Origin: a virus
DNA length: 64,000 bases
IMG/VR virus record: IMGVR_UViG_3300036795_000115
Location: 4,739 to 68,738 of that record
Direction: 5' to 3' (one strand)
Shown: positions 2,577-60,105 of the stretch, piece after piece
Layout: every line of letters begins with the position of its first letter
Position numbering within the stretch: the first letter of the stretch is position 1
The notes under the pieces: model-generated
The model's input: only the letters and a program-made list of their open reading frames with translations
What the model was told of the DNA's origin: nothing
Database searches by the model: none
Made by a program: the position numbers and the translations under genes

Positions 2577-2613
2577 CCGCCGGCCGTCCTTACCTATAGG
2601 ACGGCCGGCGGGT
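2577..2613 (+). terminator. stem-loop, probable terminator or RNA-stabilising hairpin
   Basis: CCGCCGGCCGTCCT-tacctat-AGGACGGCCGGCGG perfect inverted repeat. Confidence 0.6.
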
Positions 2614-2656
2614 GACCCCGCCAACCTTCACAGCTCCCCGCTACCGGAGGCCCGTC

Positions 2657-12732: not shown

Positions 12733-12778
12733 GTCCATAACTCTAGACGACACCACCAGGGCAAGTCAACACTTATGG
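12733..12778 (-). promoter_or_regulatory. leaderless SigA-type promoter
   Basis: CCATAAGTG-TTGACT-18-TAGAGT-tatggac-ATG. Confidence 0.75.
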
Positions 12779-12845
12779 CCAACAGATTGAGGCGTTGCCC
12801 ACCCCGCACCTGCCCAGGCTGCGACCTACGCCGAGAGGCACTCGG

Positions 12846-13223
12846 ATGGCGCTCAAACCGTGCCTCGCCTGCGGTGAACCCACCCGTGGCTCACGCTGCG
12901 GCGGTCGATGCGGCACCGCCAGCTACCGGGCCAGCGCCACGTCCAAGGGGCTCGGGCGGCAACACCAACGCATCGCACACCAGCTGATATCAGACTGGGT
13001 GAGCCGCTACGGGTGGGTGTGTCCCGGCTGGAACGATCGGCCGGCGCACCCGGTCACACCCTTCGCCACCGGTGCGGACCAGCTGACCGCCGATCACATC
13101 ATTCCTCGGTCGGTGCGACCGGATCTGATGCATGAGCCGTCAAATCTTGCCGTGCTTTGTAGGGGCTGCAATAGCAACAAGGGCGCGAAGGTAGCTCCCG
13201 CGCCAGGATTCGAACCTGGGTGA
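12846..13223 (+). CDS. HNH endonuclease
   Basis: LTADHIIP...NLAVLCRGCNSNKG; N-terminal PCLACG. Confidence 0.9.
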   Translation: MALKPCLACGEPTRGSRCGGRCGTASYRASATSKGLGRQHQRIAHQLISDWVSRYGWVCPGWNDRPAHPVTPFATGADQLTADHIIPRSVRPDLMHEPSNLAVLCRGCNSNKGAKVAPAPGFEPG

Positions 13224-13265
13224 GTTGGATCAAAGCCAACCATGCTGCCGTTGCATCACGCGGGA
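13195..13265 (-). tRNA. tRNA-Gln(UUG)
   Basis: Minus strand TCCCGCG...GTTGG-CT-TTG-AT-CCAAC...CCAGG-TTCGAAT-CCTGG-CGCGGGA-G; no encoded CCA. Confidence 0.85.
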
Positions 13266-13270
13266 TTGAG

Positions 13271-13342
13271 CTGCCCTGCCTGGACTCGAACCAGGAACCC
13301 CAGCATCAGAGGCTGGTCGGTTGCCAATTACCTCACAGGGCA
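13271..13342 (-). tRNA. tRNA-Gln(CUG)
   Basis: Minus strand TGCCCTG...CCAGC-CT-CTG-AT-GCTGG...CCTGG-TTCGAGT-CCAGG-CAGGGCA-G. Confidence 0.9.
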
Positions 13343-13388
13343 TCGCGGCGACACCTCGCTGTGCCGCTCACATCCTAGCCATCACCCC

Positions 13389-14618
13389 TCACATCTCCAT
13401 GTCCTCCGCATTCGGTGCCGTCACCGGTGCCTCGAGCCCGACCGCCTCGAACCCCCAATTCGTCGCCACCCGCCCCTGTCCGGTGCGGATGATGTACTTC
13501 GCCCGGATCAGATACGACTCGATGGACTCCAACGTCCGGCTGTCGGTGTCCGCGCCGGTGGCCAGGTTGGTCAACCCCACCGGCCCACCCTTGTGGACTT
13601 TGCACAGATCCCAGAGCACGGCCCGATCAGACTTGGTCAGCCCGTTGTGGTCGATGTCCTCCATCTCGAGGGCCCGGTTGACGTCCACCACGGTGACCGG
13701 CACATCAGTCGAGTCCGCCGAGGCCACCGCGTACTCATGCGACATCGCAAGCAGGTTGAGAGCGATCCTGGGCGTCCGCCGGCTACGGTGCGCCAGTTCG
13801 GTCGCCGCCTCCACCTCGATCTTGATAGCGTCCCGCTCAGCGGCCTGCGAGATGATCTCGGTGAGCTCCTCGACGTCGTAGTAGTCCAGGGTGCCGCGCA
13901 GCGCGAACCGGTCCAGAAGAGGCTGCGGCAACCGACCCGGCTCGGTGGTCGCACCCACCAGGATGAAGTTGTGCAACATCTTCGACTCGACCACGGACTT
14001 CGACCCGGTACCGACCGCGACATCCACCCGCCCGTCCTCCATCGCGGTCAACAGGGTGCGCTTCGGCCGCTCGGGTAGGCCGTGGATCTCCTCCACGAAA
14101 TACACGTCCCCGTCTTGCAGCTCTCCGAGCTCGTTGATGAGCGTCTCGGGTGTCTTCAGTGCGTCACCGGAGGCGATGACGAGCTCCCCGCCGGCCAGGT
14201 CCGCAACCAGCATGGCGATGCTGGTCTTGCCCAACCCGGGCGGACCTTGCAGCAGGATGTGACCGACCGGCTTGTTCAGGCGCTTCGAGGCGTTCACGTG
14301 CACGGTCAACCGCAGTCGTAGTTTGTCCTGGCCGATCATTGTGGCGATGTCGGTCGGGCGCACCGCTTTCGACCGGGCAGCTGGCGACGCCGCCTCCCGC
14401 ACCACCACAGGCTTGGGTGGTTTGACCTTGACGCCCATGCGGGCGGCGAACTCGCTGAAGTCGGTCACGCTGGATCGTCCTTTCGAGCCGTGCAGTGGTT
14501 TGAACGTGTGGGCGTTGTCGATGCAGTACGCACCGGTGGCGGGGATGGTGACGACGGTTTGGCCGATGAGGAGATGGACTTCCTCACCGGCCAGGCCATC
14601 GGTCACGTAGACGGTCAT
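13389..14618 (-). CDS. ruvB: RuvB-like Holliday junction branch-migration AAA+ ATPase with an N-terminal extension
   Basis: VRP...IGQ, HILLQGPPGLGKT, FVEEIH, AMED, LVGATT, PLLDRF, RRTPRIA, IRTGQGRVAT. Confidence 0.9.
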   Translation of the reverse strand: MTVYVTDGLAGEEVHLLIGQTVVTIPATGAYCIDNAHTFKPLHGSKGRSSVTDFSEFAARMGVKVKPPKPVVVREAASPAARSKAVRPTDIATMIGQDKLRLRLTVHVNASKRLNKPVGHILLQGPPGLGKTSIAMLVADLAGGELVIASGDALKTPETLINELGELQDGDVYFVEEIHGLPERPKRTLLTAMEDGRVDVAVGTGSKSVVESKMLHNFILVGATTEPGRLPQPLLDRFALRGTLDYYDVEELTEIISQAAERDAIKIEVEAATELAHRSRRTPRIALNLLAMSHEYAVASADSTDVPVTVVDVNRALEMEDIDHNGLTKSDRAVLWDLCKVHKGGPVGLTNLATGADTDSRTLESIESYLIRAKYIIRTGQGRVATNWGFEAVGLEAPVTAPNAEDMEM

Positions 14619-14848
14619 CAGTCGAGCTGCGTCGACGTGTCGAGCAGCAGGTCCAACGCCCAGCTGATCTGACGAGCTCGCTCGAGCGTCCAAGCTGTCT
14701 GGTTGCCGGCGAGCTCAACCTGTCGACCTCCATCGCAGGTGTAGGCGATCGGCTCGTCCGGGTGCGCCGAGTCGAGGTCGAAGCACTCGAAGTCCTGGGA
14801 GCCGCCCACGCCGCGCTCGTCGCGCCACTCACGCTTGACAACCTTCAT
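14618..14848 (-). CDS. hypothetical protein
   Basis: Coupled to ruvB (TGATG). Confidence 0.6.
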   Translation of the reverse strand: MKVVKREWRDERGVGGSQDFECFDLDSAHPDEPIAYTCDGGRQVELAGNQTAWTLERARQISWALDLLLDTSTQLD

Positions 14849-15084
14849 CGCTGCTCTCCATTCGGGAAGTACTTCGCTTCACAGCCACCACACAGCAGCC
14901 GGGTCGCACCGTTCGCGTCGCTGACCTCGCGCACCGCCGGCTGGTGGCAGTACCGGGTACCGATGCGGATGTCGCACAGGTCGCCATCCACCAGCGGGCC
15001 CAGGAGGGGCTGCACGGCGTAGAGGCTGCGCGGCGCCCGGTCTTCCTTGGCCCAGTCAGCGTGCGGGTTGTATGCGGCGGTCAT
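14845..15084 (-). CDS. hypothetical Cys-containing protein
   Basis: AAGGAG RBS; coupled ORF. Confidence 0.6.
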   Translation of the reverse strand: MTAAYNPHADWAKEDRAPRSLYAVQPLLGPLVDGDLCDIRIGTRYCHQPAVREVSDANGATRLLCGGCEAKYFPNGEQR

Positions 15085-15150
15085 GTCGAGCTCCTTAGAT
15101 GGTCTGGCGACCAACACCGGCCCTGTGGCAGTCAGGGCCCATGCAGGCGG

Positions 15151-15375
15151 TCAGACCAGGCGTGCGGCGAGCTTCCGACGCAGGTAGGTCAGGTGCAGGG
15201 TGTAGGCCTTCTGGTCCTCCTTGCTGGTGTGTACGGACCGGCTGCGGGCGAACAGGATGTCGATCTGGGCGCCGATGGCCGCGTTCGACTTGGTGTCGAC
15301 GTCGGCGATGAACTGGCGGGCGCGGTCACGCGCGGCGTCGGAGGCGGTCGGGGCGGGGGTGATGGTCTGCATCAT
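15151..15375 (-). CDS. hypothetical protein
   Basis: Under a leaderless promoter. Confidence 0.7.
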   Translation of the reverse strand: MMQTITPAPTASDAARDRARQFIADVDTKSNAAIGAQIDILFARSRSVHTSKEDQKAYTLHLTYLRRKLAARLV

Positions 15376-15420
15376 GTGCATAACACTAGACTCGTCACGG
15401 CATGACGTCAATACTTATGG
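15376..15420 (-). promoter_or_regulatory. leaderless SigA-type promoter
   Basis: CCATAAGTA-TTGACG-17-TAGTGT-tatgcac-ATG. Confidence 0.75.
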
Positions 15421-15988: not shown

Positions 15989-16083
15989 ATGACCGGTCAC
16001 TGATGACCGGTCACTGATCACTGATCTCATGGTCTCTTAAGACCGGTCACTGATGACCGGTCACTGATCTCTTAAGACCGGTC
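15989..16083. repeat. tandem palindromic GACCGGTC(ACTGAT) repeats; candidate packaging or genome-end region
   Basis: GACCGGTC at 15991, 16005, 16041, 16055 and 16076; non-coding, upstream of TerS. Confidence 0.7.
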
Positions 16084-16346
16084 GCTCAGTGGCACCATCC
16101 CTGCCCATCCATCCTTTGCGCCGGCGCACCTCGAGCTCGACGCCGGCGGACCGGGCAGAGCTCTGACCTGCGTCCTTACACGCGACGAAGATCCAAAAGG
16201 TCAAACGATCAAGCCCCAGGCCCTTCCTCCCGGTTTCTAGCGGTCTGTACGCGATACCCACTAAAACGATCACAGTGCGTGATGGTTTCGGCTCCCCGGA
16301 GACGATCAAGCTCGTTTCCGCTGGTCAGAGGCCTGGTCGGCGCATC

Positions 16347-16520
16347 CTAGAGACGATCAAGCAGCTCATCAACGAGCCGCTGCGTCAAGATCGGGTGCTC
16401 GTTCGGGTACTCGGCGCAGTGTGCGGCCATGACGCCGGCGCGGTGACGCAGGAACGCGGCGAAGGGGCGCAGGCCGGTGTCGAGGTAGATGTCCCTTTCG
16501 CACTCCGGGCACTGGATCAC
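16347..16520 (-). CDS. small CxxC protein
   Basis: GTG start with a possible -10 (GACAAT) 6 nt upstream; IQCPEC...HC. Confidence 0.45.
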   Translation of the reverse strand: MIQCPECERDIYLDTGLRPFAAFLRHRAGVMAAHCAEYPNEHPILTQRLVDELLDRL

Positions 16521-16559: not shown

Positions 16560-17006
16560 ATGAGCGGTAGTCGAGGCCCGTTGTCCAATCCGAGTGCACG
16601 CCGTCGGAACCTTCCGTCCGGCTCGAAGATCCAGCTCCCGATGGAGGGCTGGCAGGGCCCGATCCCGGACTGGCCCCTGGTCGAGGCCACGTCGATCGAG
16701 CTGGATCGCTGGGAGCGCATGTGGCGCACCCCGATGGCCGCGCAGTGGGTGCGGATGCACATCGACACCGTGATCGCCCGGTATGTGCGGGTGGCGTTGC
16801 TCGCCGAGTCGTTTGATCACGAGACGTCGGTGGCGATGGCGAACATCAAGGGCGAGGCCCGCCAGCTCGAGTCGCTGTTGGGGTTGAACCCTTCGGCGTT
16901 GAAGCGTCTGGAGTGGGAGATCGTGGTCGATGAGGTTGAGGAGCAGCGTGAGGTGGCTCCGGCGCGGCGTCGGTTGAAGGCTGTGGACCCGGATGTGCCG
17001 GCATGA
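16560..17006 (+). CDS. terminase small subunit
   Basis: RGP..NPSARRRN, WERMWRTPMAAQW, ARQLESLLGLNPSALKRLEW; AGGAGG RBS. Confidence 0.85.
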   Translation: MSGSRGPLSNPSARRRNLPSGSKIQLPMEGWQGPIPDWPLVEATSIELDRWERMWRTPMAAQWVRMHIDTVIARYVRVALLAESFDHETSVAMANIKGEARQLESLLGLNPSALKRLEWEIVVDEVEEQREVAPARRRLKAVDPDVPA

Positions 17007-17281
17007 ACGATCTTAAGTACCAGACGTTCAAGATCTGGAACGACACCGGGAAAGGCCGTGACACGCACATCGAGCTCGATGGTGAGGACGTCAGTGCCGC
17101 GTTCAACGACGTGACCGTCCGTGCCGGTGTCAGAGGCCGCGTCGAAGTCATACTGTCCACCGTCGCGGCCGAGATCCCGAAGCAGCCATTCGAGGCAGAG
17201 CCAGCGCGCCTTTTCCTTGCTCCGGTCACTCGGGAGCTGCTCATCAAGCATGGCTGGACGCCGCCCGCCGGGACCGCCTGA
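17003..17281 (+). CDS. hypothetical protein
   Basis: Coupled ORF. Confidence 0.65.
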   Translation: MNDLKYQTFKIWNDTGKGRDTHIELDGEDVSAAFNDVTVRAGVRGRVEVILSTVAAEIPKQPFEAEPARLFLAPVTRELLIKHGWTPPAGTA

Positions 17282-17547
17282 TGGCCCCGCCGTACAACGT
17301 CCGCGACTGGTTCCGTGAGGACGTCCAGCACGACAGCCCCGACCACGTCGTGCTGTGGCAGGACTGGTTCACCTTGCACGGCATCGACCCGTCCGAGGTG
17401 CTGCTGACGCACTGGATTGAGCGTCGCGCCCACGGCACCCAGAACCAGATCGTGTGGCTCGAGGACGATGTGCGCGACGGGGAGCCGATCACCGTTGAAC
17501 GCGTGCGTGAACTTGTTGATCCGCCCGCCCCGTTTCCCGTCCCGTAG
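17281..17547 (+). CDS. hypothetical protein
   Basis: Coupled ORF. Confidence 0.65.
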   Translation: MAPPYNVRDWFREDVQHDSPDHVVLWQDWFTLHGIDPSEVLLTHWIERRAHGTQNQIVWLEDDVRDGEPITVERVRELVDPPAPFPVP

Positions 17548-17556
17548 GAGCTTCTG

Positions 17557-17844
17557 ATGACGTACGTGCCTACCGTCAACCTGTCGCCGCTGTACGCGTT
17601 CACCCAGTTCTCCGGCACAGTCTCGGCGTTTCAGACCGCGCTGAACACGGCGTTTGCCGCAACGGCCGGGAACATCCAGTGCTTCGCTGACACCACATCC
17701 GGTCAGACCGCCTGGGCTGTCGTGGTCGTGGGTGACCAGCAGGTGTTGAGTGTGCCGCCGAACAACTACATCGGCTTCAACCAGGGGCAGTGGTCGCAGT
17801 ACACGCCCACGAAGCTGGGGCAGCTCTACACGGTTTACCCGTAA
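17557..17844 (+). CDS. hypothetical (possibly virion) protein
   Basis: AGGAG RBS; Thr/Gln/Asn-rich. Confidence 0.7.
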   Translation: MTYVPTVNLSPLYAFTQFSGTVSAFQTALNTAFAATAGNIQCFADTTSGQTAWAVVVVGDQQVLSVPPNNYIGFNQGQWSQYTPTKLGQLYTVYP

Positions 17845-17847
17845 GCG

Positions 17848-19440
17848 ATGCCCTGGCACGGGGGAGACGGTGATCCGGGCGCCTTCCCGACGTTGGGCTT
17901 CGCGGTCATTGACTGGATCGAAGCAAACCTCATCGTCCCGGATGGCGCTCGTCGCGGTGAACCGTTCCTGCTGACGCCCGAGCAGCAGTGGCACATCATG
18001 AAGTCGTACCAGCTCAAGCCACACGCTCGGGCCGATATGGGCTCGCAAGCGTTCACGTACTACGGCTCGCTGTTGGTGCGCCCGCAGAAATCCGGCAAGG
18101 ACCCCCTCGCCGCAGCGCAGGCGTGTGCTCAAGCGCTCGGCCCGGTTCGGTTCGCCGGCTGGGACGCAAGCGGGGAGCCGGTGGGCTCTCCTATGCCGAC
18201 GCCCTGGATCCAGTGCGCAGCCAACTCGGAAGATCAGGTTGGCAACACCTTCAGTCCGATCTTCACGATGCTCTCGGAAGGCCCGGCGGCGAACACTCCG
18301 GGCCTGGATGTGGGCCTGACCAGGGTGAATTTACCGGACGGTGGCCGTATTGAGCCGGTCACGGCGGCGGCGAAGAGCCGTCTGGGTGCCCGGATCACCT
18401 TCGCCACCTTCACCGAGTCGGGCCTGTACACCGAGTCATCCGGTGGCGTGACCTTGGCGCGCACCATGAAGCGCGGTTTGGCCGGCATGGACGGCCGCTG
18501 GATGGAGCTCACCAACGCCTACGACCCGTCGGAGCGTTCGGTAGCCCAGCGAACGTGGGAAGCCAAGGCTCCGGGCGTCTTTCTGGACTATCGGCAGCCC
18601 CGGGTGCGCGTCGATCTGGACGACGATCAGGCACTTCGAGCCGAATTGGTCTACGTCTACGGGGATTCGGCCATCGAGAACGGCGGCTGGGTCCGCATTG
18701 AGCGGATCATGGACGAAATCCGAGATCCGAGCACTGGTGAGGGTGAGTCTCGCCGGTTCTATCTCAACGAGGTCACGGTCGGGTCGCGCGACGCCGTCGA
18801 CATGATCAAGTGGACGGCTCAGCGGGACTCCAGCGAGCCGCTCCAGAAGCGCCAGCAGGTCGCGTTGGGCTTCCATGGCTCCCAGAACCGCGACGCGACC
18901 TCGTTGTGCGCCTCACGGCTGTCTGACGGTCGCATTTACCATCTCAGGACGTGGGAACGGGCCCCCGGAGAGTCGGAATGGACCGTTCCGCGCGAGGAAG
19001 TCCACCAGGCCGTCCGGGATGCGTTCAAGGCCTTCCAGGTCGAGGCCATGTTCTGCACACCCACGGGTTGGCAGACCGAAGTGAACGTGTGGGACGGGCA
19101 GTACCCGAAGAAGGTCTACGAACTGTGGACCAACTCCGAGTTGCGCATGGATCAGCTGGTGGAACGGTTCCAAACGGCCCATCGGGGCGACGAATTGACC
19201 CATGACGGCACCGAAATCCTCACTATGCACGCCGCTGGGGCTGCTTTGGCCAACGGAAAGCGGCGTTCCACGGCCGAGGAGCGGGTGCCGGGGCAGCCTG
19301 AGCACTACCAGCGGATCGTGAAGAAGTCGCACGCACAGTCAATTTCCGCCTTCATGGCGGCGCTTTTGGCCTACGAAGCCCGTGGTTGGGCCATCGAACA
19401 CGGGTCGTTGGCGAAGCGGAAAGTACCCAACTTGTGGTGA
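17848..19440 (+). CDS. terL: terminase large subunit; nuclease domain apparently inactivated
   Basis: Walker A RPQKSGKDP; ELTNAYDP; directly upstream of the portal; nuclease motifs read GFHGS, FCTP, SISA. Confidence 0.9.
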   Translation: MPWHGGDGDPGAFPTLGFAVIDWIEANLIVPDGARRGEPFLLTPEQQWHIMKSYQLKPHARADMGSQAFTYYGSLLVRPQKSGKDPLAAAQACAQALGPVRFAGWDASGEPVGSPMPTPWIQCAANSEDQVGNTFSPIFTMLSEGPAANTPGLDVGLTRVNLPDGGRIEPVTAAAKSRLGARITFATFTESGLYTESSGGVTLARTMKRGLAGMDGRWMELTNAYDPSERSVAQRTWEAKAPGVFLDYRQPRVRVDLDDDQALRAELVYVYGDSAIENGGWVRIERIMDEIRDPSTGEGESRRFYLNEVTVGSRDAVDMIKWTAQRDSSEPLQKRQQVALGFHGSQNRDATSLCASRLSDGRIYHLRTWERAPGESEWTVPREEVHQAVRDAFKAFQVEAMFCTPTGWQTEVNVWDGQYPKKVYELWTNSELRMDQLVERFQTAHRGDELTHDGTEILTMHAAGAALANGKRRSTAEERVPGQPEHYQRIVKKSHAQSISAFMAALLAYEARGWAIEHGSLAKRKVPNLW

Positions 19441-19454: not shown

Positions 19455-19628
19455 ATGCCGCAGTGGCTCCTTTTGACCCTCGAAATCGTCGGATGTGCCC
19501 TGTTCGTGGCCGGAGTGTGGCTGTTTTGGCACCCAGGGGCGTTCCTGGTCGCCGGAACGGCCATTGTGGTGGCCTGTGAGCGTTGGTCGATCGCGGAGAC
19601 GGCTCGCAGGCAGGGACAACGCCGGTGA
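19455..19628 (+). CDS. small 2-TM protein
   Basis: Two hydrophobic helices; typical between TerL and portal in HK97-like actinophages. Confidence 0.7.
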   Translation: MPQWLLLTLEIVGCALFVAGVWLFWHPGAFLVAGTAIVVACERWSIAETARRQGQRR

Positions 19629-20875
19629 GCCTGTTCCGGATCAAGGAACGTCGAACGAACATCGAAAATCCGGCCGTCCCCCTGAATTCCCTGTCCCTGC
19701 TGGGCCTGTTCGGCGGTCAGCCCACCGATTCGGGTGTGCCGGTCACCGAGTACACGGCGATGAACATGTCGGCCGTCTACCGGGCCGTCAGCCTCATCTC
19801 CGGGCTCGCTGGTTCACTGCCGTTGCAGGCGGTGGACACCGCCACGAAGAAGCCGGTCGAGGGAACCATCCTCGAAGACCCGCATCCGGAGATGACGGCG
19901 CTCGAGTTGTGGCGTCTCGCGGCGGTGCATCGCTGCCTGTGGGGTAACAGCTACCTGCAGAAGGTCTACAAGCGCGGCGGCAAGATCGCCTACCTGAACC
20001 CGATCTCCCCGGACAGGGTGACGGTGCTGCTAGCTGACCCGATCACCGCGAACCCGTCGGGAAAGGTCTTCAAGGTCGCGCAACTCGACGGCAAGATCGT
20101 GCCGATGACCCCGAACGAGATCATGCACATCCCAGGCATCGGCTACGACGGCAGATGTGGGATCTCCCCGGTGCGGGCGGCAGCCCAGGCAATCGGAATG
20201 GCCCAAGCGGCGGAAGCTACCGCCGCTCGACTGTTCAAGTCCGGCAACATGCTGTCCGGCCTGCTCTCCACTGAGGCCGAGCTGGACCAGTCTCAGGCCG
20301 AGACGTTGCAGGCGCGCTGGGCGGAGAAGTTCTCCGGCATCGACGGTGCCCACCGGGTCGCCGTGCTGGACTCCGGGGCGAAGTTTCAGAGCCTCGTCAT
20401 GCCGAACGACGACGCGCAGCTGCTCGAGTCCCGCGACTTCCAGGTCACGGAGGCGGCCAGGGTATTCGGCATCCCGCCGTACCTGATGTATCAGACGGAC
20501 AAGACCACGTCGTGGGGCTCCGGGCTGGAACAGCAGGCGCGTGGTTTCAACCAGTTCGACCTACACCCGAACTGGTTGGCCCCGGCCGAGCAGCGGATCA
20601 CGAAAGAGCTGCTGCCGGCGGGTCAGAAGGCCCGCTACGACATCGACAGCCTGTTGCGCGGCGACTCGATCGCCCGCGCCGAGTACTACCGGGTGATGCG
20701 GGAGATGGGCGCTTACAACGTCGATGAGATCCGCGACCTGGAGGATCTGCCGCCGCTGCCCAACGGTGCCGGCCAGGTGTATCTGCAGCCGATCAACCCG
20801 AACGCGGTCAATGCCCCGATGGGCTCGGACAAGGTTCTGGGTGGTTCGTCGCTAGGCCCGTCTGATGGCGGCTAA
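19625..20875 (+). CDS. HK97-family portal protein
   Basis: AVYRAVSLIS..AGSLPL, LWGNSY, IMHI..GISPV, DAQLLESR..ARVFGIPP, LLRGD. Confidence 0.95.
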   Translation: MSLFRIKERRTNIENPAVPLNSLSLLGLFGGQPTDSGVPVTEYTAMNMSAVYRAVSLISGLAGSLPLQAVDTATKKPVEGTILEDPHPEMTALELWRLAAVHRCLWGNSYLQKVYKRGGKIAYLNPISPDRVTVLLADPITANPSGKVFKVAQLDGKIVPMTPNEIMHIPGIGYDGRCGISPVRAAAQAIGMAQAAEATAARLFKSGNMLSGLLSTEAELDQSQAETLQARWAEKFSGIDGAHRVAVLDSGAKFQSLVMPNDDAQLLESRDFQVTEAARVFGIPPYLMYQTDKTTSWGSGLEQQARGFNQFDLHPNWLAPAEQRITKELLPAGQKARYDIDSLLRGDSIARAEYYRVMREMGAYNVDEIRDLEDLPPLPNGAGQVYLQPINPNAVNAPMGSDKVLGGSSLGPSDGG

Positions 20876-20892: not shown

Positions 20893-21168
20893 ATGACGTT
20901 CTCCGTGGTAGTGCCCGCTGGCACCGGCGGCGTGCAGGCCGTGACCGGCGATTGCGAGCTCGTGGGGTTCTCCGTCCGCGAGACAGCGGCAGCTGTGGCC
21001 ACTGTCGTGTTCCGTGACGGAACCTCGTCGGCTGGGGCGTCCAGGACGTTCGTCAACTTGGCCGCGAGCGGCACCGACAGCAAGATCTTGCCCGCCGTGG
21101 AGTTCAAGACCGGGATTTTCGTCGACCGGACGGCGGGCTCGACCGAGCTCGTGCTGTACCTCGACTAG
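20893..21168 (+). CDS. hypothetical (possible capsid decoration) protein
   Basis: GAGG RBS; beta-rich small protein in the head operon. Confidence 0.65.
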   Translation: MTFSVVVPAGTGGVQAVTGDCELVGFSVRETAAAVATVVFRDGTSSAGASRTFVNLAASGTDSKILPAVEFKTGIFVDRTAGSTELVLYLD

Positions 21169-21182
21169 TGAAGGGATCGGCG

Positions 21183-22478
21183 ATGCTTCGTAGCCTGCCG
21201 ACTGGTGAAGAGCGTCGTGATCTGTCCCTGCTCGACGCGGGCGTTTCTCTGCAAGTCGAACCTTCCACCGAGACTCGAAGGTTCGTGGGCCACGCGGCGG
21301 TGTTCAACAGTCGAACCGCGATCGGCAACCCCCGCACGTTCGGGTTCTACGAGCGCATTTCCCCCGGTGCGTTCACCAAGACCCTTCAGGAGTCCGACGC
21401 CCGGTTCTTGATTGACCACTCCTCGTACCACGTGGTCTCAAGGGCATCGGCCGGCACGCTCCTGCTGAGTCAGAACACACGCGGTCTCGCGGTCGACTCC
21501 GCGCTCGACACACGCTTGTCCTACGTCAACGACCTGATCGCCAACTTGGACAACGGCAATATCCGGGGCATGTCCTTCGGGTTTCAGGTGGTCAAGGACG
21601 AGTGGAGCGAGCTTTCGGAGCGTGACGCCAACGGCGAGCCGTTCACGGTCGAGGACCGTGACATCAAGGAAATCAAGCTGATCGAAACCAGCTCGGTGAC
21701 CTTCCCCGCCTACGAGGAAACCGACGCGGGACTGCGCCACAGCCTCGTCCCCGCGTTGCGTCACCGGGGCGACCTGGACGCCATCGCCCGCGCGGTGTCG
21801 TTTCGCCCCGAGCTGGCGCACCTACTGGGGTACGACCCGGAACTCGCGCCCACGCACATTCTCTTGGACAGCCGAGCTATGGCCAAGAAGCCCGCCCCCG
21901 CTGACGATGAGTCAAAGGAGCCGGCGTCAGCCGACAAGGCGGGCACAGTCATCCCGTATCAGCACACCGCGACCAGCGACAAGGCGTGGGATGCGGCGTC
22001 GAACGTCAAAAACCTGGGCGACACCCCGTCGGCGGACTCGCTGCGAGCGTGTTTCGGGTGGATGCACGACGACCACGACAACGACGCAGATGACGACCCG
22101 ACGAACAAGAGCAACTACAAGTTTCCCCACCACTTCGTCTCTTCTGACGGGTCGGTGGGTGCGGCGTCCACGGTGGCTTGCTCCGCCGGGATCGCCGCGT
22201 TGAACGGCGGCCGTAGCGGCGCGAATATCGCCGACTCGGCCCGCTCCGGGGTGTATGAGCACCTCGCGCACCACCTTCGGGACGCTGGCGCTGAACCGCC
22301 AGAGTTGAAGTCGCACAGTGAGCCGGCTGAGACCACTCATAACGCCGACCCGGAAGTAGAACCAGCTGAGATCCCGGAAACCGAGCCGGCCGCGTCCACT
22401 CGGGACTTCGAATCTGAGCAGTACACGGCCCTGGCGAAGGCCCGCGCACTCGCGGTCCGCCTGAGCTTGGCCGCCTAA
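21183..22478 (+). CDS. HK97-type prohead protease with an extra C-terminal domain
   Basis: FVGHAAVFN, FLIDH, GMSFGF, ETSSVTFPAY. Confidence 0.92.
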   Translation: MLRSLPTGEERRDLSLLDAGVSLQVEPSTETRRFVGHAAVFNSRTAIGNPRTFGFYERISPGAFTKTLQESDARFLIDHSSYHVVSRASAGTLLLSQNTRGLAVDSALDTRLSYVNDLIANLDNGNIRGMSFGFQVVKDEWSELSERDANGEPFTVEDRDIKEIKLIETSSVTFPAYEETDAGLRHSLVPALRHRGDLDAIARAVSFRPELAHLLGYDPELAPTHILLDSRAMAKKPAPADDESKEPASADKAGTVIPYQHTATSDKAWDAASNVKNLGDTPSADSLRACFGWMHDDHDNDADDDPTNKSNYKFPHHFVSSDGSVGAASTVACSAGIAALNGGRSGANIADSARSGVYEHLAHHLRDAGAEPPELKSHSEPAETTHNADPEVEPAEIPETEPAASTRDFESEQYTALAKARALAVRLSLAA

Positions 22479-22555
22479 CCACTCCTAGCTCCCCCTTCAC
22501 TCCCTGCGCATGCGTACGGGGGCTGTTGGCGTGCCTGAAAGGACGCGAACCAACG

Positions 22556-23848
22556 ATGAGCAACGAACTGAACAAGCGGTACCGCGAGGAGCTCATGGGG
22601 CTCTCGCACCGCATGAACGAGATCCTCGGCGAGACCGAGAAGGCTGGCGAGTGGACCGCTGAGCAGCGGACCAACTTCGACACCGCCAGCGCCCGCGCCG
22701 ACGAGCTCGAGGCGAAGGTCACCGAGCTGGAGGCCGACGCCAAGCGCGCCGACCGTGCGCACGGTCTTGACGCCGTGGATTACTCCTCGGTCGTGCAGAC
22801 CCGCGCGGGTGCCCCGGTGCAGACGCCGGAGCAGTCGGTGGAGGAGCGCGACGCCGCTCACGACGCCGAGTACCTGCGGGCCTTCGAGTCCTACGCCCGC
22901 AACGGCCTGGAAGACCTGCGTCCCGAGCAGCGGCAGATCCTCGCCGCGAACTACGTGCGTGGCGGTCAGGAAGCTCGCGCCGGCGCGGTCACCTCCCCGA
23001 GCTCTTCCGGTGGTTACCTGATCCCGCCGGGCTACCGGCAGATCATCATCGAGCGGATGAAGGCGTTCGGTGGCCTGCTGCAGTACGCCACGGTCATCAA
23101 CACCTCGACCGGTAACCCGTTGCAGTGGCCGACCAACGATGACACCGCCAACCAGGGTGCCCTCAACGCGGAGACCCATGACCTGGCGACCGGTTTCACC
23201 GAGTTCACGTTCGGGACCGCGACCCTGGGTGCGTGGCTGTACGCCTCTGGTGTCGCCCTGGTGTCGGTGCAGCTGCTACAGGACAGCGTGTTCGACCTGA
23301 ACACCTGGCTGCCGGATCACATCGGCACCCGTATCGGCCGCAAGGTCGCCTCGGTGCTGGTCACCGGCGCCGGCACCACCGAGCCCCTGGGTGTGGCCAC
23401 CAACGCCACCGTGTCCGTGACCGGTGCTGACACCACGTCGATCACCTACGACAACCTGATCGACCTGGAGCACTCGCTCGACCCGGCGTACCGCAACAAC
23501 TGCCGGTTCATGATGAACGACGCCACCCTCGCGGTCATCCGGAAGATCAAGGACTCGCAGGGCCACCCGCTGTGGGTCCCCGTGCCGGTCCCCGGCATGG
23601 CGCCGAGCATCAATGGTCAGCCCTATTTCGTGGATCAGGGAATGGCTGTTCCGGGTGCGTCGAACAAGTCGATCCTGTTCGGTGACTTCCAGCGCGCGTA
23701 CGTGGTCCGCCAGGTCTTGGACATGAATATGGTGCGATTCAGTGAGCGCTTCATGTCGGCACTCCAAGTAGGCTTCCTCGGCTTTACTCGACTGGACGCC
23801 ACGGTGCAGGACTCGAACGCTTACGCGGCATTCCAGCACCACGCCTGA
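22556..23848 (+). CDS. HK97-fold major capsid protein
   Basis: N-terminal coiled-coil delta domain, GGYLIP, SVQLLQDS, KIKDSQGHPLW, FGDF. Confidence 0.95.
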   Translation: MSNELNKRYREELMGLSHRMNEILGETEKAGEWTAEQRTNFDTASARADELEAKVTELEADAKRADRAHGLDAVDYSSVVQTRAGAPVQTPEQSVEERDAAHDAEYLRAFESYARNGLEDLRPEQRQILAANYVRGGQEARAGAVTSPSSSGGYLIPPGYRQIIIERMKAFGGLLQYATVINTSTGNPLQWPTNDDTANQGALNAETHDLATGFTEFTFGTATLGAWLYASGVALVSVQLLQDSVFDLNTWLPDHIGTRIGRKVASVLVTGAGTTEPLGVATNATVSVTGADTTSITYDNLIDLEHSLDPAYRNNCRFMMNDATLAVIRKIKDSQGHPLWVPVPVPGMAPSINGQPYFVDQGMAVPGASNKSILFGDFQRAYVVRQVLDMNMVRFSERFMSALQVGFLGFTRLDATVQDSNAYAAFQHHA

Positions 23849-55463: not shown

Positions 55464-55649
55464 TCATGGCGAGTCCTTGTGTAGGTCGGAACGGAAACCC
55501 TGACCCTTGAGCTCGATCGCCTGAACCTCTTCACGGCTGTACCCGCGTTTCTCCGGGATGCCGTGCCGGCGCATGACGACCCGAACGTAGTCGGGCTGAA
55601 TGCCCAGGAACTTGGCGACTTCATCGCGTGTCATCAAGGGTTCTTCCAC
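55464..55649 (-). CDS. excisionase/MerR-like HTH protein
   Basis: LMTRDEVAKFLGIQPDYVR...GQGFRSDL; leaderless promoter TTGCTC-17-CATAGT-6-GTG. Confidence 0.75.
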   Translation of the reverse strand: MEEPLMTRDEVAKFLGIQPDYVRVVMRRHGIPEKRGYSREEVQAIELKGQGFRSDLHKDSP

Positions 55650-55693: not shown

Positions 55694-57196
55694 CTAGCCA
55701 GCCCTCTTGAGCTCGCCGTGGAAATACTCTTTCCCCAGCGCCACAGCGTCGATCTGATCATCATGAAGCGTCTTCGGATACGCCTTCATCTGCGCCTCAA
55801 GACCCGAGATCGGCCGAGCATGCACCACCATCGGCGGTCGGCGCAGGTAGCAGTCGTGCAGGTCCGTGATCCGGTCAATCTTCGAACGACGCAAGTTCAC
55901 CGCGAAGATCTTCACCCCCGGAGGCAGCGGCGACAGCGTGTTCTCGACGTGATCGCCACCGTTGGTCACATCCACCACGATGAGCCGGATCCCGTTCTTA
56001 CGGACGATCGAGTGCACCAGCTCCCGCAACTTGTCCGGCTTCAACCGCACACCCATCACCCGCTCCACCACCACGCGGCGCACATTGGCGGCGTAGGACA
56101 GCATGGCGATACCGGTCTCGTCGTTCGACTTCTTCGACTTCGACGCCGGGTCCACGATCAGGATCCGCTCCGTCACATGCGCCAACAGCTTGTCGTCGTA
56201 AGTGATGTCGTCGTCATCCCAGAACGTGCCGTTCTCATCCACCGGGGCGTTGTCGAAGTTCTTCGCGTACCCGCGCGGGTTTCGCAGCCGTTCGGCCCGC
56301 TGCCACTCCAGCGCCCACTTCGGCTCCCACAGCGACCGCTCTTCGCCGGTGTCCGGGTCTTCGACGATGCCCTTGAAGTGGTGCACCTCGATGTTCTCCT
56401 CGGCAACCCACGCCTCGCCCTCGACGAGATCATGAATGATGGAGCCCGCCATCACCGTTGTGCCCGCTACCTGGACCACGGCGCTGAAGTTGCAGGGCAA
56501 GATGACGTCGATCAGATCCTCGAGCCGCTTGCGCTTCATCTCGACGCTGTAACGGCCCTTCTTCGGCTCGATTTCGTCGAAGAGCAGAGCGTCGGGGCGC
56601 AGGTTGTCCCACTTCACGCCCAGGGTCGCTGAGTTCATCCCCTTCACCATGATGATCGAACCGTTCGCGGCCAGGTACGTCGTGTCGTTGTCCTTCAACG
56701 CCCGGCCGCCGGTCTTCATCGGTGTACAGAGCTCGGGAAAATCGCGCATGAGGCGCTCGTTCTGGGAGAATTGCAGCTTGAGCGTGGCCAGGTGCAGCTT
56801 CGCCTGATCCTCCGTGTCCGAGTACACGACGATGAACTTGCGATGCCCAAACGCCATCGCCCACAGCGGAAGGATCAAGAACAGCCAGGTGGTTTTGGCC
56901 CCCTCGCGCGGAGCTACCCAGGCGTCGCGGATCTCCTTCGGGCCGATGTCGGTGCGCATCCACCGCTTCGCCGACATCGCCAGGGCCACGTGCAGGTCAC
57001 TCAGCGCGTGCAGCAGCCCGGGCAGGGTTACGTGCGGGGCCAGGTAGTAGAGCGCGAACAGGATCGGCGAGGTGCGGCACCAGTCCCGGCGCTTGTTGAT
57101 GCATTCCTGGGTGTGCACTCGGAACGCGGAGTGTTTCAGCTTCGCGGTGTAGAGCTCGGGGGTGAACCCGGGCGGGCCTTCGAGGCGGCGTTTCAT
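55694..57196 (-). CDS. second terminase large subunit (Terminase_6-like), not linked to a portal
   Basis: APREGAKTT, RPDALLFDEIE, VAGT, IVDPA, DETG, HDDQIDA. Confidence 0.85.
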   Translation of the reverse strand: MKRRLEGPPGFTPELYTAKLKHSAFRVHTQECINKRRDWCRTSPILFALYYLAPHVTLPGLLHALSDLHVALAMSAKRWMRTDIGPKEIRDAWVAPREGAKTTWLFLILPLWAMAFGHRKFIVVYSDTEDQAKLHLATLKLQFSQNERLMRDFPELCTPMKTGGRALKDNDTTYLAANGSIIMVKGMNSATLGVKWDNLRPDALLFDEIEPKKGRYSVEMKRKRLEDLIDVILPCNFSAVVQVAGTTVMAGSIIHDLVEGEAWVAEENIEVHHFKGIVEDPDTGEERSLWEPKWALEWQRAERLRNPRGYAKNFDNAPVDENGTFWDDDDITYDDKLLAHVTERILIVDPASKSKKSNDETGIAMLSYAANVRRVVVERVMGVRLKPDKLRELVHSIVRKNGIRLIVVDVTNGGDHVENTLSPLPPGVKIFAVNLRRSKIDRITDLHDCYLRRPPMVVHARPISGLEAQMKAYPKTLHDDQIDAVALGKEYFHGELKRAG

Positions 57197-57630
57197 GCTG
57201 ATTCGTCGGCTTCCCAGTCGTCCCAGTCCTCGCCCGATTCATTATCGGAATCGACGGGCGGGGCGTCGTCGTACAGTTTCAGGCGGGCCGCGTTCTGCTG
57301 ACGGACCTCGCCGGCGAGGCGGGCGAAGTCGGCGTTGGAGCAGTCTTCGCCGAGCCGTTCGAACGTCATGCGGGTGAGTTGATCAAGCTCGTCATGGGCT
57401 ATGACCTGCATCAACGTCCGAGAGGGACGGTCATGTCTCAACATCAACATTTCGATACGGCGGTAGAACGTCGCCCTCGAGATGCACAAATCCTTCGCAA
57501 TATCGTTCGGCGACTCACGCCGCAGTAACCGTGCGTAGGCCAGCGCTGCCTCAGTGTCGATGACCTCAGGAGGCTTATTCGGATCCGCGCTCTCGTAGCG
57601 GCCGGAATGATCCGTCGCCGGCCGGTCCAT
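57193..57630 (-). CDS. HTH protein, putative small subunit for the second terminase
   Basis: DIAKDLCISRATFYRRI; coupled to the second TerL. Confidence 0.65.
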   Translation of the reverse strand: MDRPATDHSGRYESADPNKPPEVIDTEAALAYARLLRRESPNDIAKDLCISRATFYRRIEMLMLRHDRPSRTLMQVIAHDELDQLTRMTFERLGEDCSNADFARLAGEVRQQNAARLKLYDDAPPVDSDNESGEDWDDWEADESA

Positions 57631-58509: not shown

Positions 58510-58593
58510 GTGCCTCTGCTCCAGGTAGCTCTGGTGCGGGTGGAAGTCCTGGCTAGCAGTTCGAGCTGCTGGTCAGGGCGTTGGGAGTCTCAA

Positions 58594-58638
58594 CCGTACA
58601 TAAGAGGATTGGTCAGGACGAACCCGTACTATACACGG
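58594..58638. other. candidate attP
   Basis: Imperfect dyad CCGTACATAAGAGGATTGGTC-AG-GACGAACCCGTACTATACACGG just upstream of the integrase. Confidence 0.45.
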
Positions 58639-60105
58639 GTGCCGTCCAGTCAGGGAACCTCTCACGCACCGTTACGGGTGGGACTTTACTGCCGCGTCAG
58701 CCACGATCCCACTGGTCGGGGAACTTCCGTAGCTGACCAGGAGAAAGAAGGGCGCGCTTGGTGCGCCGCGAACGGGCACCTGGTGGCCTGGCTGATTGTC
58801 GACAACGACATCAGTGCGAGCCGGTACAGCAAGAAGGAACGCCCCGGGTTCACCGAAGTGCAGCGACGGTTGGCCGGCGCCGACCCGGTGGAGATCCTGT
58901 GGGCGTGGGAGTCGTCGCGGTTCACCCGCGACCTGAAGGTGTACGCGCAAGTCCGGGCGCTGTGCGAGCGCTACGAGGTGCTGTGGTCCTATCACGGCAA
59001 GACCTACGACATGTCCCGGGCGGACGACCGGTTCGCCACCGCGCTGGACGTGATCCTGGGCGAGCGGGCGTCGGACGACACGAGTGACCGAGTACAGAGA
59101 GCGGTGGATGCCCGGGTGGAAGCCGGTACAGCGCACGGACGAGTCCCGTACGGCTACCGGGCTGTCTACCACCCGCACACCGGGGCTCCGATCGGCCGGG
59201 AACCGGACCCGGGCACCGCGCCGGTAGTGAAGGAGATCGTGCGCCGGGTACTCGGCGAAGAGCCCAGCTACCAGATCGCCAAGGATCTCAATCAGCGCGG
59301 CGTGATCTCCCCGCACGGGTTCCGACTGCAGCGCACCGGTCAGCCGGTGGACGACGCTCGACCGTGGACGATCAGCCTGGTCCGGCAGCTCGCGGTGAAC
59401 CCCACCTACGCCGGACTGCGGACATACGACGGCAAGGTGAAGGGCGATGCCACCTGGGAGGCGCTGATCTCCGGCGCGGAGCATCGGCGCGTGGTGGCCC
59501 GCTTTTCCGACCCGGCACGGAAGGGAACTCGGGACCGCGAGGTGAAGCACCTGCTGGCTGGGATCGTGCTGTGCGGGGTGTGCGGCGACCCGTGCCGGCG
59601 GGTGGTGAACCACGGCAGCCCCAGCTACTCGTGCCGCACCAACCACTGCGTGTCCCGGGTGCAGTCGGCGGTGGACGCCCTGGTGACCGAGACGCTGCTG
59701 CTGTGGTTGGAGCGCCCCAACGCGGCGGAAGTATTCACCGACCGCGATGACAGCGCCGAGGTCGACGCGGCCGTTGCGGAGCTCGCGGAGCTGCGGGCGC
59801 GCCTCGCCGAGTTCGAGCGGTCCGCTGATCAGCCGGGCGGGATCTCCGCCGCGTCACTGGCCCGTCGGGAGGCGCATTACCTGCCACTGATCGAGGACGC
59901 CCGTCGGCGCACCATCCCGACGCACGTACCGGAGGTCATCCGGGATCTCGTGGAGGCCGAGGACGTGCGGGAACGGTGGGCGGATCTGGCCCCTTTGGTG
60001 CGACGGTCCGTGGTGCGGCACCTGATGACGGTGCGGATCATGCGGACGTCGAGTCGCGGGTCGCACGGGTTCGATCCGTCGTGCGTCGACATTGCGTGGC
60101 GGTGA
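58639..60105 (+). CDS. int: large serine recombinase (integrase)
   Basis: LYCRVS catalytic Ser, DNDISAS, RPGF, SSRFTR, PYGY, NPTYAG, LLAGIVLCGVCG Zn ribbon. Confidence 0.95.
   Translation: MPSSQGTSHAPLRVGLYCRVSHDPTGRGTSVADQEKEGRAWCAANGHLVAWLIVDNDISASRYSKKERPGFTEVQRRLAGADPVEILWAWESSRFTRDLKVYAQVRALCERYEVLWSYHGKTYDMSRADDRFATALDVILGERASDDTSDRVQRAVDARVEAGTAHGRVPYGYRAVYHPHTGAPIGREPDPGTAPVVKEIVRRVLGEEPSYQIAKDLNQRGVISPHGFRLQRTGQPVDDARPWTISLVRQLAVNPTYAGLRTYDGKVKGDATWEALISGAEHRRVVARFSDPARKGTRDREVKHLLAGIVLCGVCGDPCRRVVNHGSPSYSCRTNHCVSRVQSAVDALVTETLLLWLERPNAAEVFTDRDDSAEVDAAVAELAELRARLAEFERSADQPGGISAASLARREAHYLPLIEDARRRTIPTHVPEVIRDLVEAEDVRERWADLAPLVRRSVVRHLMTVRIMRTSSRGSHGFDPSCVDIAWR

Follow-up and report, generated by a model that had tools for sequence, protein, structure and literature searches.

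The large terminases of textbook cos and pac phages combine motor and cutter in one protein. To our knowledge, the only well-known packaging motor without a working nuclease is that of phi29, which acts on ready-made genome units; phi29 relies on a pRNA, lacks a small terminase (TerS), and fills its heads with unit-length DNA that is protein-capped. A nuclease-dead C-terminal RNase H-like domain is kept in the motor protein of that phage, gp16, according to three reports (PMC9410871, PMC10359639, PMC7672431). In HK97, the packaging proteins are gp2 (the large terminase; structure 6z6d), gp1 (TerS), and gp74 (an HNH protein). Two of these reports place the catalytic centre of gp2 at D302, D388, and D471 (PMC9410871) and describe nuclease domains that are directed toward the portal and touch DNA during translocation (PMC10359639). 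Terminases of the T7-like type are found in PhiV-1 (8dgc), Streptomyces phage Yara, and the satellites MiniFlayer and MulchRoom, the last two of which have genomes with direct terminal repeats (PMC10690885). In a literature search conducted largely at the abstract level, no description was found of natural loss of the catalytic Asp residues from a cos/HNH-type terminase or of two terminases in one phage analysed as a system.

The window, the whole stretch of 64,000 nucleotides that was analysed, comes from a 68.7-kb, circle-assembling genome of a temperate actinophage from soil. The public runs listed were 24 in number, all of them soil metagenomes as assembled contigs, and the contig from the source run had 0 differences from the window. 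Four of these runs were inspected for positions at which DNA molecules start or stop, and none was seen. The features relevant to DNA packaging were as follows.

12846..13223, + strand: HNH endonuclease, with a TADH...CRGCNSNKG motif identified by eye
15990..16088, + strand: five copies of TGACCGGTCACTGA, approximately 470 to 570 bp upstream of TerS1
16560..17006, + strand: TerS1, small terminase paired with TerL1, by similarity to Kromp
17003..17844, + strand: three small ORFs (92, 88, and 95 amino acids) in the TerS1-TerL1 gap, function unassigned
17848..19440, + strand: TerL1, HK97-type large terminase (phrog_19179, 7.8e-67; phrog_9, 9.2e-41)
19583..20875, + strand: portal protein (phrog_12, 2.9e-100)
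21168-22478, + strand: head maturation protease (phrog_80, 5.4e-39)
22526-23848, + strand: major head protein (phrog_10, 8.8e-72)
55694..57196, - strand: TerL2, complete second large terminase of the T7-like/Terminase_6 type (phrog_38, 3.1e-49)
57193..57630, - strand: TerS2 candidate, a 145-amino-acid helix-turn-helix (HTH) protein; its stop codon overlaps the start of TerL2
58510..60105, + strand: large serine integrase (phrog_95, 2.1e-78), divergent from the TerL2 operon

TerL1 was similar to HK97 gp2 in fold, in profile, and in its two-domain build. Its frame was open from ATG to TGA (530 amino acids), in agreement with the first-pass annotation, which had described a full-length gene without decay. 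The yardsticks for the HK97-type family were phrog_9 and the Pfam models TerL_ATPase (PF03354) and TerL_nuclease (PF20441), and profile similarity placed TerL1 in this family. Alignment of HK97 gp2 with the TerL1 family alignment (A2) by hhalign gave a probability of 97.1% and an E value of 1.4e-10, and a profile search of solved structures had 6z6d_A as its best match (E value, 3.7e-4); the solved-structure search with TerL1 as a single sequence had no terminase among its matches. Pfam models matched the TerL1 window protein with 0 families at E values of ≤1, and PF20441 was recorded only for some homologues with Asp at all three catalytic positions (DDD homologues), such as P0090 and P0096. 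The AlphaFold model of TerL1 (pLDDT, 90.1) consisted of an ATPase domain (approximately residues 1 to 325) followed by an RNase H-like domain (approximately residues 326 to 520) without catalytic Asp. HK97 TerL 6z6d was the top Foldseek match of this model (E value, 1.7e-21), which also matched full-length HK97, T4, Sf6, and D6E terminases and the G20c nuclease domain; the phi29-like motor 7jq6 ranked far below HK97.

The TerL1 gene lies between those for the small terminase and the portal, as expected of an HK97-type terminase, and the TerS-TerL-portal order is the same as in HK97. The small terminase annotated in Streptomyces phage Kromp matched TerS1 at 43% identity over 87 amino acids (E value, 1e-17), and TerS1 was the neighbour of TerL1 in each of the 6 related phage records and at 15 of 15 DDD loci. 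The motifs of the two TerL1 domains were as follows.

18079..18102, + strand: Walker A, RPQKSGKD, residues 78 to 85 (K84, D85), with K84 encoded by AAG at 18097
18412..18417, + strand: end of Walker B, T189-E190, the family variant "TE," aligned with HK97 "DE" by hhalign
18874..18876, + strand: H343 (CAT) in LGFHGS, replacing HK97 D302 by hhalign
19057..19059, + strand: T404 (ACA) in MFCTP, replacing HK97 D388 by hhalign
19345..19347, + strand: S500 (TCC) in SISAFMA, replacing HK97 D471 by hhalign

That the three nuclease Asp residues had been replaced by H, T, and S was first proposed from the sequence alone, and the hhalign alignment to HK97 gp2 confirmed it, with H343, T404, and S500 falling on the catalytic positions. 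The motifs given at that stage for related phages (LGFDGS, YCDP, and KIDAxxA) were roughly right; in DDD relatives they are LGFDGS, ADPY, and LIDAFVAA. In the model, H343 ends strand 337-343, T404 is located just past strand 397-403, and S500 opens helix 500-517.

The homologue alignment contained 121 rows, query included, from several sources. The match to the catalytic positions exceeds chance, as the triad columns were DDD in 46 of these 121 close homologues, in 73 of 79 loci of bacterial genomes, and in 102 of 116 representative clusters. All three Asp residues were absent in 75 of the 121 rows, every one of which had ≥61% identity to the query, whereas the DDD rows were all at most 59% identical, giving a clean split by identity; viral loci at ≥61% identity were Asp-less in 17 of 17 cases. 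The Asp-less rows formed one branch with a support of 100, corresponding to one change on a 116-row tree. Among 63 rows of this Asp-less clade, position 343 was H in 51, I in 3, Y, F, and T in 2 each, and other residues in the remainder, never D. Position 404 was S (37 rows), T (22), N (2), F (1), or A (1), and position 500 was S in 61 of the 63. The nuclease-like domain without the triad is under strong purifying selection: dN/dS values for the four closest pairs were 0.024, 0.018, 0.060, and 0.013, compared with 0.035 to 0.23 for the ATPase domain in the same pairs. Loss of the triad is a property of the whole clade, not decay. A clade-discriminating filter over the 530 columns passed only 343, 427, 428, and 500; column 404 was also without Asp throughout the clade, though outside these four. 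Residues next to the active site were relaxed (S345 was kept in 62%, K492, the equivalent of HK97 K463, in 41%, and I499 in 54%), and E411, H445, W427, and S498 were newly invariant in the clade.

The motifs of the ATPase domain were intact. Walker A was present, as the first-pass annotation had stated, and K84 was retained in every DDD row (45 of 45) and in 62 of the 63 Asp-less rows. Walker B reads FATFTE. The "FTE" in place of "xDE," remarked on in the first-pass annotation, is no defect; it is the subfamily norm and occurs in DDD members too. E190 was present in all 121 rows, and 113 of them, 37 of the 45 DDD rows included, had T189. T189 covaries with the Asp that follows the Walker A Lys; TerL1 has GKD and TE where HK97 has GKT and DE. 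Q46 of TerL1 pairs with the adenine-binding Q33 of HK97. Inteins in Asp-less homologues interrupted Walker A; others followed the Walker B Glu immediately or came after residue 130 or residue 220.

The HNH endonuclease and TerL2 had both been suggested as possible stand-in cutters, and both genes exist and are conserved across the clade. H84, the catalytic His of the HNH, and four Cys residues were conserved without exception across the 9 aligned homologues; the family HMM matched genomes G000-G003 and G030, and the gene was present in all 4 near-complete clade genomes. An HNH protein is part of both this system and that of HK97. HNH-TerS-TerL adjacency was seen in DDD relatives; at 9 of 15 DDD loci, an HNH homologue immediately preceded TerS. 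In contrast, the HNH of this clade is no longer directly beside the terminase in the manner of HK97 gp74; in the window it is displaced upstream from TerS1 by approximately 3.3 kb, and genes on the opposite strand separate the two. The presence of a second terminase is a further difference from HK97. In Kromp, the HNH gene is beside the terminase genes across the genome ends. A complex prediction for TerL1 with the HNH scored 0.01, a value with no weight for or against contact. The three small ORFs between TerS1 and TerL1 showed only partial conservation within the clade, and G002 lacked them.

TerL2 resembled the T7-like terminases by phrog_38 and by the PF17289 domain that its homologues carry, and its profile matched the PhiV-1 terminase 8dgc_E (E value, 5e-4); Pfam had no match to the TerL2 window protein at E values of ≤0.01. 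It was 33 to 37% identical to the terminases of Yara, MiniFlayer, and MulchRoom. In an alignment inspected by eye, the Walker A Lys, an acidic Walker B, and three acidic nuclease motifs were present in 7 of 7 phage genomes. The T7-like relatives are sole, portal-side terminases, whereas TerL2 is an extra one, about 36 kb from the portal in an operon that runs leftward and adjoins the integrase. It occupied the same relative place in the window and in G001, G002, G003, and G020. The 145-amino-acid HTH protein is a candidate small terminase for TerL2; its HTH_23 match was weak and below the cutoff (E value, 0.0028), and in 5 of 7 genomes the gene immediately preceding TerL2 encoded an HTH protein of 143 to 171 amino acids. 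TerL2 was found in 5 of 7 clade records, both misses being 55%-complete fragments, so that every assessable clade genome carries it. Asp loss and a second TerL, whose co-occurrence the first-pass annotation had proposed to check, go together across the clade, but the pairing is not exclusive: of 17 DDD viral records, 2 also carried TerL2, and both were among the 5 records with ≥90% completeness. TerL2 therefore has a role independent of TerL1 being dead, and because all of the Asp-less cases with TerL2 belong to one clade, the co-occurrence counts as one evolutionary event and not as replicated evidence.

These comparisons suggest that TerL1 is a motor only and that DNA is cut in trans by the HNH, TerL2, or both, a reading to which we assign a probability of about 0.6. 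A motor-only terminase was the first-pass proposal as well, and it is the best reading of the monophyly, the purifying selection, and the confinement of changes to residues in or next to the active site. TerL1 on the portal would serve as the ATP-driven packaging motor but would be unable to cut, because the three Asp residues of its two-metal, RNase H-type centre have become His, Ser/Thr, and Ser. Their loss makes two-metal catalysis very unlikely; it does not by itself disprove nuclease activity. By analogy with the HK97 motor structure, the dead nuclease fold may be retained because the motor still depends on it physically, to dock on the portal and to hold DNA. The phage probably replicates via a circular or concatemeric form, and for that reason its DNA would still have to be cut. 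The candidates for cutting in trans are the HNH, which usually accompanies terminases of this type, and TerL2 with its likely small subunit. TerL2 would have about two chances in five of being the cutter, the HNH alone slightly more than one in three, and both or something else about one in four. Since two other candidate cutters are kept, packing and cutting seem to be tasks of separate proteins.

Several other explanations must be weighed against a motor-only TerL1. TerL2 and its HTH partner might be the real terminase, which both cuts and translocates, leaving TerL1 as a non-motor accessory such as a portal adaptor or assembly factor. Such a role for TerL2 would agree with its complete set of ATPase and nuclease motifs, with the Yara relative that is the sole terminase beside a portal, with the presence of this TerL type in MiniFlayer and MulchRoom, and with a search of 22 other viral records with a TerL2-type terminase, none of which had a TerL1 (the positive control scored 4 of 4). 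It is nevertheless unlikely, given that TerL1 retains K84, E190, and Q46 in an ATPase domain under purifying selection, that inteins target its ATPase motifs, that the TerS-TerL-portal order around it is intact, that TerL2 is remote from the head genes, and that two relatives pair TerL2 with a fully DDD TerL1. It seems less probable still that TerL1 cuts via a remodelled site made up of D349, E411, H445, or H343. The clade has become invariant for E411 and H445, where DDD rows have Y and F/Y, D349 was kept in 53 of 63 clade rows (D or E in 60 of 63), and D435, H452, D453, and H461 were conserved in Asp-less and DDD groups alike. However, the first-strand residue, which is essential in RNase H-like terminase nucleases, varies in the clade among H, I, Y, F, T, L, R, and Q, and constraint is relaxed at the Lys that corresponds to HK97 K463 and at other neighbouring positions. 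Replacements in other lineages of the family differ widely (VDT, SNA, KDT, ANF, and HNN), a pattern that fits loss and does not fit redesign.

TerL1 shares with phi29 gp16 a C-terminal RNase H-like domain without catalytic residues, and gp16 is the known case of such an ATPase with an inactive nuclease-like domain (PMC9410871, PMC10359639). Packaging of preformed, unit-length genomes without any cutting, which the first-pass annotation had also entertained, is highly improbable for this phage. The features of the phi29 type (no TerS, inverted terminal repeats, and a capped linear genome) were not found: the contig ends overlap by 127 bp, exact and direct, so that the contig closes on itself, and the inverted terminal repeat at its ends had an exact length of 0. 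Unlike phi29, the phage has TerS1, the HNH, and a serine integrase, the last of which implies a circular form. Its replication genes encode a Prim-Pol, an AAA_25 helicase, and a RuvB-like protein, and neither a terminal protein nor a protein-primed polymerase was present among the 40 proteins scanned. A further difference from phi29 is that the loss in TerL1 is recent; sister proteins at 50 to 59% identity are DDD. The TGACCGGTCACTGA repeats upstream of TerS1 are a candidate recognition site for TerS or a repressor; TGACCGGTCACTGA had 6 matches in the window, 5 of them within 15990..16088, and 0 of 100 shuffles reached 6. Finally, there is next to no chance that TerL1 is a decaying remnant or that the substitutions are an assembly error. 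An unrelated Asp-poor homologue is truly broken by a stop codon, but TerL1 has a full-length frame, 75 of 121 rows from several sources share its state, dN/dS was 0.013 to 0.06, and the source-run contig was identical; decay of the Asp-less clade is ruled out by the shared state, the branch support of 100, and dN/dS.

These Asp residues were absent from at least five further lineages of the TerL1 family. Among 113 representative clusters, the triad changed at least six times, with 5 of the changes forced by well-supported branches; rows P0296, P0319, P0357, and P0370, which were truncated or misaligned, were left out of the tree. A second Asp-poor lineage (L302/L335) had a dN/dS of 0.053; the others comprised P0250/P0251/P0266, P0276/P0349/P0301/P0303, P0277, P0302, P0293, L340, and L363. 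L093 (K, D, S), from a Plantactinospora prophage, was considered as an independent loss and dropped because its TerL is interrupted by a stop codon, consistent with a decaying prophage. L093 lies in a complete bacterial genome in which no second terminase was seen. Searches for P0303 in viral contigs for a whole genome and for P0301 in genome contigs had no match, and those for P0250 and P0277 recovered Asp-poor members only on contigs of 7 to 15 kb. A tentative extension is that two terminases share the work, TerS2-TerL2 cutting and handing the end to a nuclease-dead TerS1-TerL1 on the portal, and that HNH-linked HK97-type terminases have dropped their nuclease at least six times; we consider this possible but doubtful. 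TerS2-TerL2 would in that case be transcribed with early or lysogeny-side genes.

Thus, a cos/HNH-type terminase of a temperate phage appears to lack its cutter even though the DNA must be cut, and the nuclease-less state is stable over a diverse soil clade, with similar losses recurring in the family. The annotation "terminase large subunit" may not imply a nuclease in every case. If TerL1 is a motor only, the clade would provide a natural system for study of the non-cutting role of the nuclease fold in the motor, would show how an HNH or a second terminase couples to a foreign motor, and would bear on the exchange of packaging specificity between phages and satellites. If two terminases do share the work, cutting and translocation would be separable modules in tailed-phage packaging.

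The open reading frame at 17848-19440 on the plus strand starts with ATG, ends with TGA, and specifies a 530-aa protein, TerL1, that PHROGs assigned to the large terminases (phrog_19179, E = 7.8e-67; phrog_9, E = 9.2e-41); a Pfam search returned no match at E ≤1. The top solved-structure match of an AlphaFold model built from 64 homologues (mean pLDDT, 90.1) was the HK97 large terminase (6z6d; E = 1.7e-21). In the model, H343 ends the strand 337-343, T404 lies just past the strand 397-403, and S500 starts the helix 500-517, the usual positions of acidic residues in an RNase H-like fold.

The three codons that the first-pass annotation had read as lost nuclease aspartates were verified: CAT at 18874 encodes H343 (LGFHGS), ACA at 19057 encodes T404 (MFCTP), and TCC at 19345 encodes S500 (SISAFMA). 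When the TerL1 family alignment was compared by hhalign with HK97 gp2 translated from NC_002167 (probability, 97.1%), all three occupied catalytic Asp positions of HK97. According to the available portion of the published account, the HK97 catalytic center consists of D302, D388, and D471, with K463 reaching in (PMC9410871).

Residues of TerL1 paired with HK97 gp2 by hhalign
H343 with D302
T404 with D388
S500 with D471
K492 with K463

The absence of Asp was evaluated in an alignment of TerL1 with its 120 best homologues (121 rows). All three Asp (DDD) were present in 46 rows, and 75, the query included, had no Asp at any of the three columns (Asp-less; 2 of these are fragmentary and gapped at the third column), most commonly HSS (33) or HTS (25) at columns 343, 404, and 500. 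Identity to the query separated the two groups, being 61% or more in all Asp-less rows and never above 59% in DDD rows. All 17 viral-contig loci with at least 61% identity were Asp-less, and 73 of 79 bacterial-genome loci were DDD, the six others being L070, L093, and the cut or partial copies L036, L066, L073, and L101. In a FastTree phylogeny of 116 rows (63 Asp-less, 45 DDD, and 8 outgroup; 13 fragments or intein-bearing rows excluded), a single branch with support of 100 separated the Asp-less rows from all others, and one change was enough. The Asp-less state is a property of a clade and not gene decay.

The dN/dS values of the Asp-less nuclease domain (query versus L001, 0.024; query versus L002, 0.018; query versus L003, 0.060; L001 versus L002, 0.013) indicate that it is under purifying selection. 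Conservation of the nuclease domain compared with that of the ATPase domain was similar in the two groups (0.648 versus 0.696 in the Asp-less group; 0.527 versus 0.584 in the DDD group). Only columns 343, 427, 428, and 500 passed a clade-discriminating filter; at column 404, too, no clade row has Asp (S, 37; T, 22). Neighbors of the active site are relaxed in clade rows, with S345 kept in 62%, K492 in 41%, and I499 in 54%. Mosaicism was apparent both within TerL1, where dN between the query and L003 or L007 was 0.25 to 0.31 in the ATPase domain and 0.03 to 0.08 in the nuclease-like domain, and between terminase genes, the window and the clade record G001 sharing 91% identity in the second large terminase (TerL2) and 74% in TerL1.

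The ATPase of TerL1 looks intact from its motifs. The Walker A Lys (K84 in RPQKSGKD) and E190 of the Walker B end (T189-E190) are kept in both the Asp-less and DDD groups, and Q46 aligned with the adenine-binding Q33 of HK97. The Walker B sequence FTE had been considered anomalous, but T189 was found in 113 of 121 rows, including 37 of 45 DDD rows. GKD and TE occurred together in 110 of 121 rows, and GKS or GKG with DE in more distant relatives. The position following the Walker A Lys (18094-18102) covaries with the Walker B Asp/Thr position (18412-18417): D was paired with T in 110/121, 33/98, and 5/117 rows of three TerL alignments, and most of the remaining rows paired S or G with D, as if the metal-binding roles of the Walker A-side and Walker B-side positions were swapped. 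Six Asp-less homologues (P0014, P0019, P0029, P0043, P0044, and P0048), as well as loci L004, L005, and L017, contain inteins, inserted inside Walker A (after residue 82), immediately after E190, or after residues 130 and 220; those in the homologues are 311 to 380 aa long and are annotated with LAGLIDADG or Hom_end domains.

Asp loss also recurs elsewhere in the family. Among 1.84 billion representatives searched, 1,700 matched at E ≤0.001, and 116 proteins of 470 to 660 aa from the best 150 of these were aligned. DDD was present in 102, ten lacked one to three Asp (VDT, SDT, SNA, RAD, HNN, IND, KDI, ANF, KDT, and VNQ), and four rows that appeared truncated or misaligned were dropped. On a 113-row tree from this set, 6 changes were required, 5 of them forced by well-supported branches. 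Among 125 aligned rows of a short-viral-contig set (122 of them loci; DDD in 115), additional Asp-poor copies were L289 (VDT), L302 and L335 (KDA; dN/dS between them, 0.053), L340 (GID), and L363 (ENS). Locus L093 (9935-11533 of a Plantactinospora solaniradicis contig; K, D, S) was rejected as an independent loss; it is a decaying TerL1-type gene with a stop after ∼85 codons, in a prophage with a G+C content of 0.57 versus 0.70 in the flank. As this case illustrates, the intactness of Asp-poor rows taken from bacterial genomes has to be verified.

The window comes from one contig of 68,738 bp (bases 4739-68738), and its genes include the following.

Features of the window
2612-3436, plus strand: Prim-Pol
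3440-4915, plus strand: AAA_25 helicase
11544-12329, minus strand: Ku (PF02735, 2.9e-36)
12846-13223, plus strand: HNH endonuclease
13389-14693, minus strand: RuvB-like ATPase (RuvB_N, 7.9e-40, plus RuvB_C)
16560-17006, plus strand: small terminase, TerS1 (43% over 87 aa to the Kromp small terminase, E = 1e-17)
17848-19440, plus strand: TerL1 (ORF reading; PHROGs large terminase)
19583-20875, plus strand: portal
21168-22478, plus strand: head protease
22526-23848, plus strand: major head protein
55694-57196, minus strand: second large terminase, TerL2
58510-60105, plus strand: large serine integrase

The phage is a temperate actinophage, predicted to have a circular or concatemeric stage, and its DNA would therefore need cutting. 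The suggestion that cutting is unnecessary, with unit-length genomes packaged as in phi29, is unlikely: the contig closes by an exact 127-bp overlap of its ends, no inverted terminal repeat was found at those ends, and an integrase is encoded. Five copies of TGACCGGTCACTGA, each containing the palindrome TGACCGGTCA, lie at 15990-16088 as two pairs plus one, 470 to 570 bp upstream of TerS1, with one additional near-match in the window at 44565; three copies of GAGACGATCAAGC follow the array at 16202-16362. These repeats could serve in recognition by a terminase or act as an array of operators.

One candidate for the cut is the HNH endonuclease, 3.3 kb from TerS1. In staphylococcal cos phages, both HNH and TerL nuclease activity are reportedly required. 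The DDD bacterial-genome loci have the gene order HNH, TerS, TerL, with TerS in 15/15 loci and a homologue of the window HNH immediately upstream of it in 9/15. The last gene of the isolated phage Kromp is HNH and the first is TerS, an arrangement shared by HK97, in which, as far as the available text describes it, cos cleavage is stimulated by the TerL-binding gp74, whose HNH His is essential (PMC13595911). HNH is kept in the four near-complete genomes of the Asp-less clade. The recurrence of Asp loss within an HNH-linked family points to HNH as the cutter. The Ku and RuvB-like genes flank the HNH gene; Ku is common to the window and G001 only (72%). In mycobacteriophages Corndog and Omega, Ku is said to join (very) short cohesive ends. 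In contigs of three other soil runs, 12748 is joined to 13389 with ∼33 other letters between, skipping the HNH ORF, and other soil-run contigs join 12749 to 15407; with matching sides of only 21 to 23 letters, the joins may stem from other phages or from chance.

The other candidate, TerL2, matched phrog_38 (3.1e-49) and, by profile, the T7-like PhiV-1 terminase. Its closest relatives in isolated phages (33 to 37% identity) are in Microbacterium and Streptomyces phages and the satellites MiniFlayer and MulchRoom, where this gene is the sole terminase, whereas the window has two. MiniFlayer and MulchRoom have direct terminal repeats, according to the accessible part of PMC10690885. In an alignment read by eye, TerL2 of 7/7 phage genomes kept the Lys of Walker A, an acidic residue in Walker B, and the three acidic motifs of the nuclease. 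An HTH protein of 143 to 171 aa, likely its small subunit, is encoded immediately upstream in 5/7. Directly downstream, a 61-aa ORF (55464-55649, minus strand; 45% identical to its G001 counterpart) resembles by eye an excisionase or MerR-type HTH protein. Upstream of the HTH protein, a 77-aa ORF (57639-57872, minus strand) contains hydrophobic stretches and is also present in G001 and G020; it had no family match in PHROGs or Pfam. The presence, without break, of a complete second terminase in the Asp-less clade points to TerL2 as the cutter.

Occurrence of TerL2 by TerL1 state
Window, G001, G002, G003, and G020, Asp-less: 5/5
G004 and G005 (55%-complete fragments), Asp-less: 0/2
Bacterial genomes with prophages, DDD: 0/14
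Viral records, DDD: 2/17 (G028 and G030), or 2/5 of those at least 90% complete

Wherever one record has both, TerL2 lies ∼35 to 38 kb downstream of the Asp-less TerL1 on the other strand. A TerL1-type gene was found in 0/22 long viral records with a TerL2-type terminase (positive control, 4/4); two-terminase genomes are therefore, together with the counts listed, uncommon. The proposed link between Asp loss and a second terminase held in part: TerL2 is in every assessable Asp-less genome, but it also stands beside a DDD TerL1 in G028 and G030. The presence of TerL2 beside an intact TerL1 shows that it has a role of its own, and redundancy first with loss later would fit as the order of events. 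The association of the Asp-less state with TerL2 is a single evolutionary event.

A search of the published literature, taken mainly at abstract level, did not turn up a cos/HNH-type terminase reported to have lost its catalytic Asp naturally, or a study that treated the two terminases of one phage as a system. In HK97, as described in the available part of PMC10359639, the packaging complex has its nuclease domains turned toward the portal and in contact with DNA. The most likely role of TerL1 is that of a motor that has lost its cutting ability. The initial proposal of a motor-only terminase with delegated cutting is supported by the Asp loss, the intact ATPase motifs, and the retention of HNH and TerL2 in the clade; its option of no cut is unlikely. 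The nuclease fold of TerL1 would be retained for its place in the motor, and the DNA cut would be supplied by HNH, TerL2, or both.
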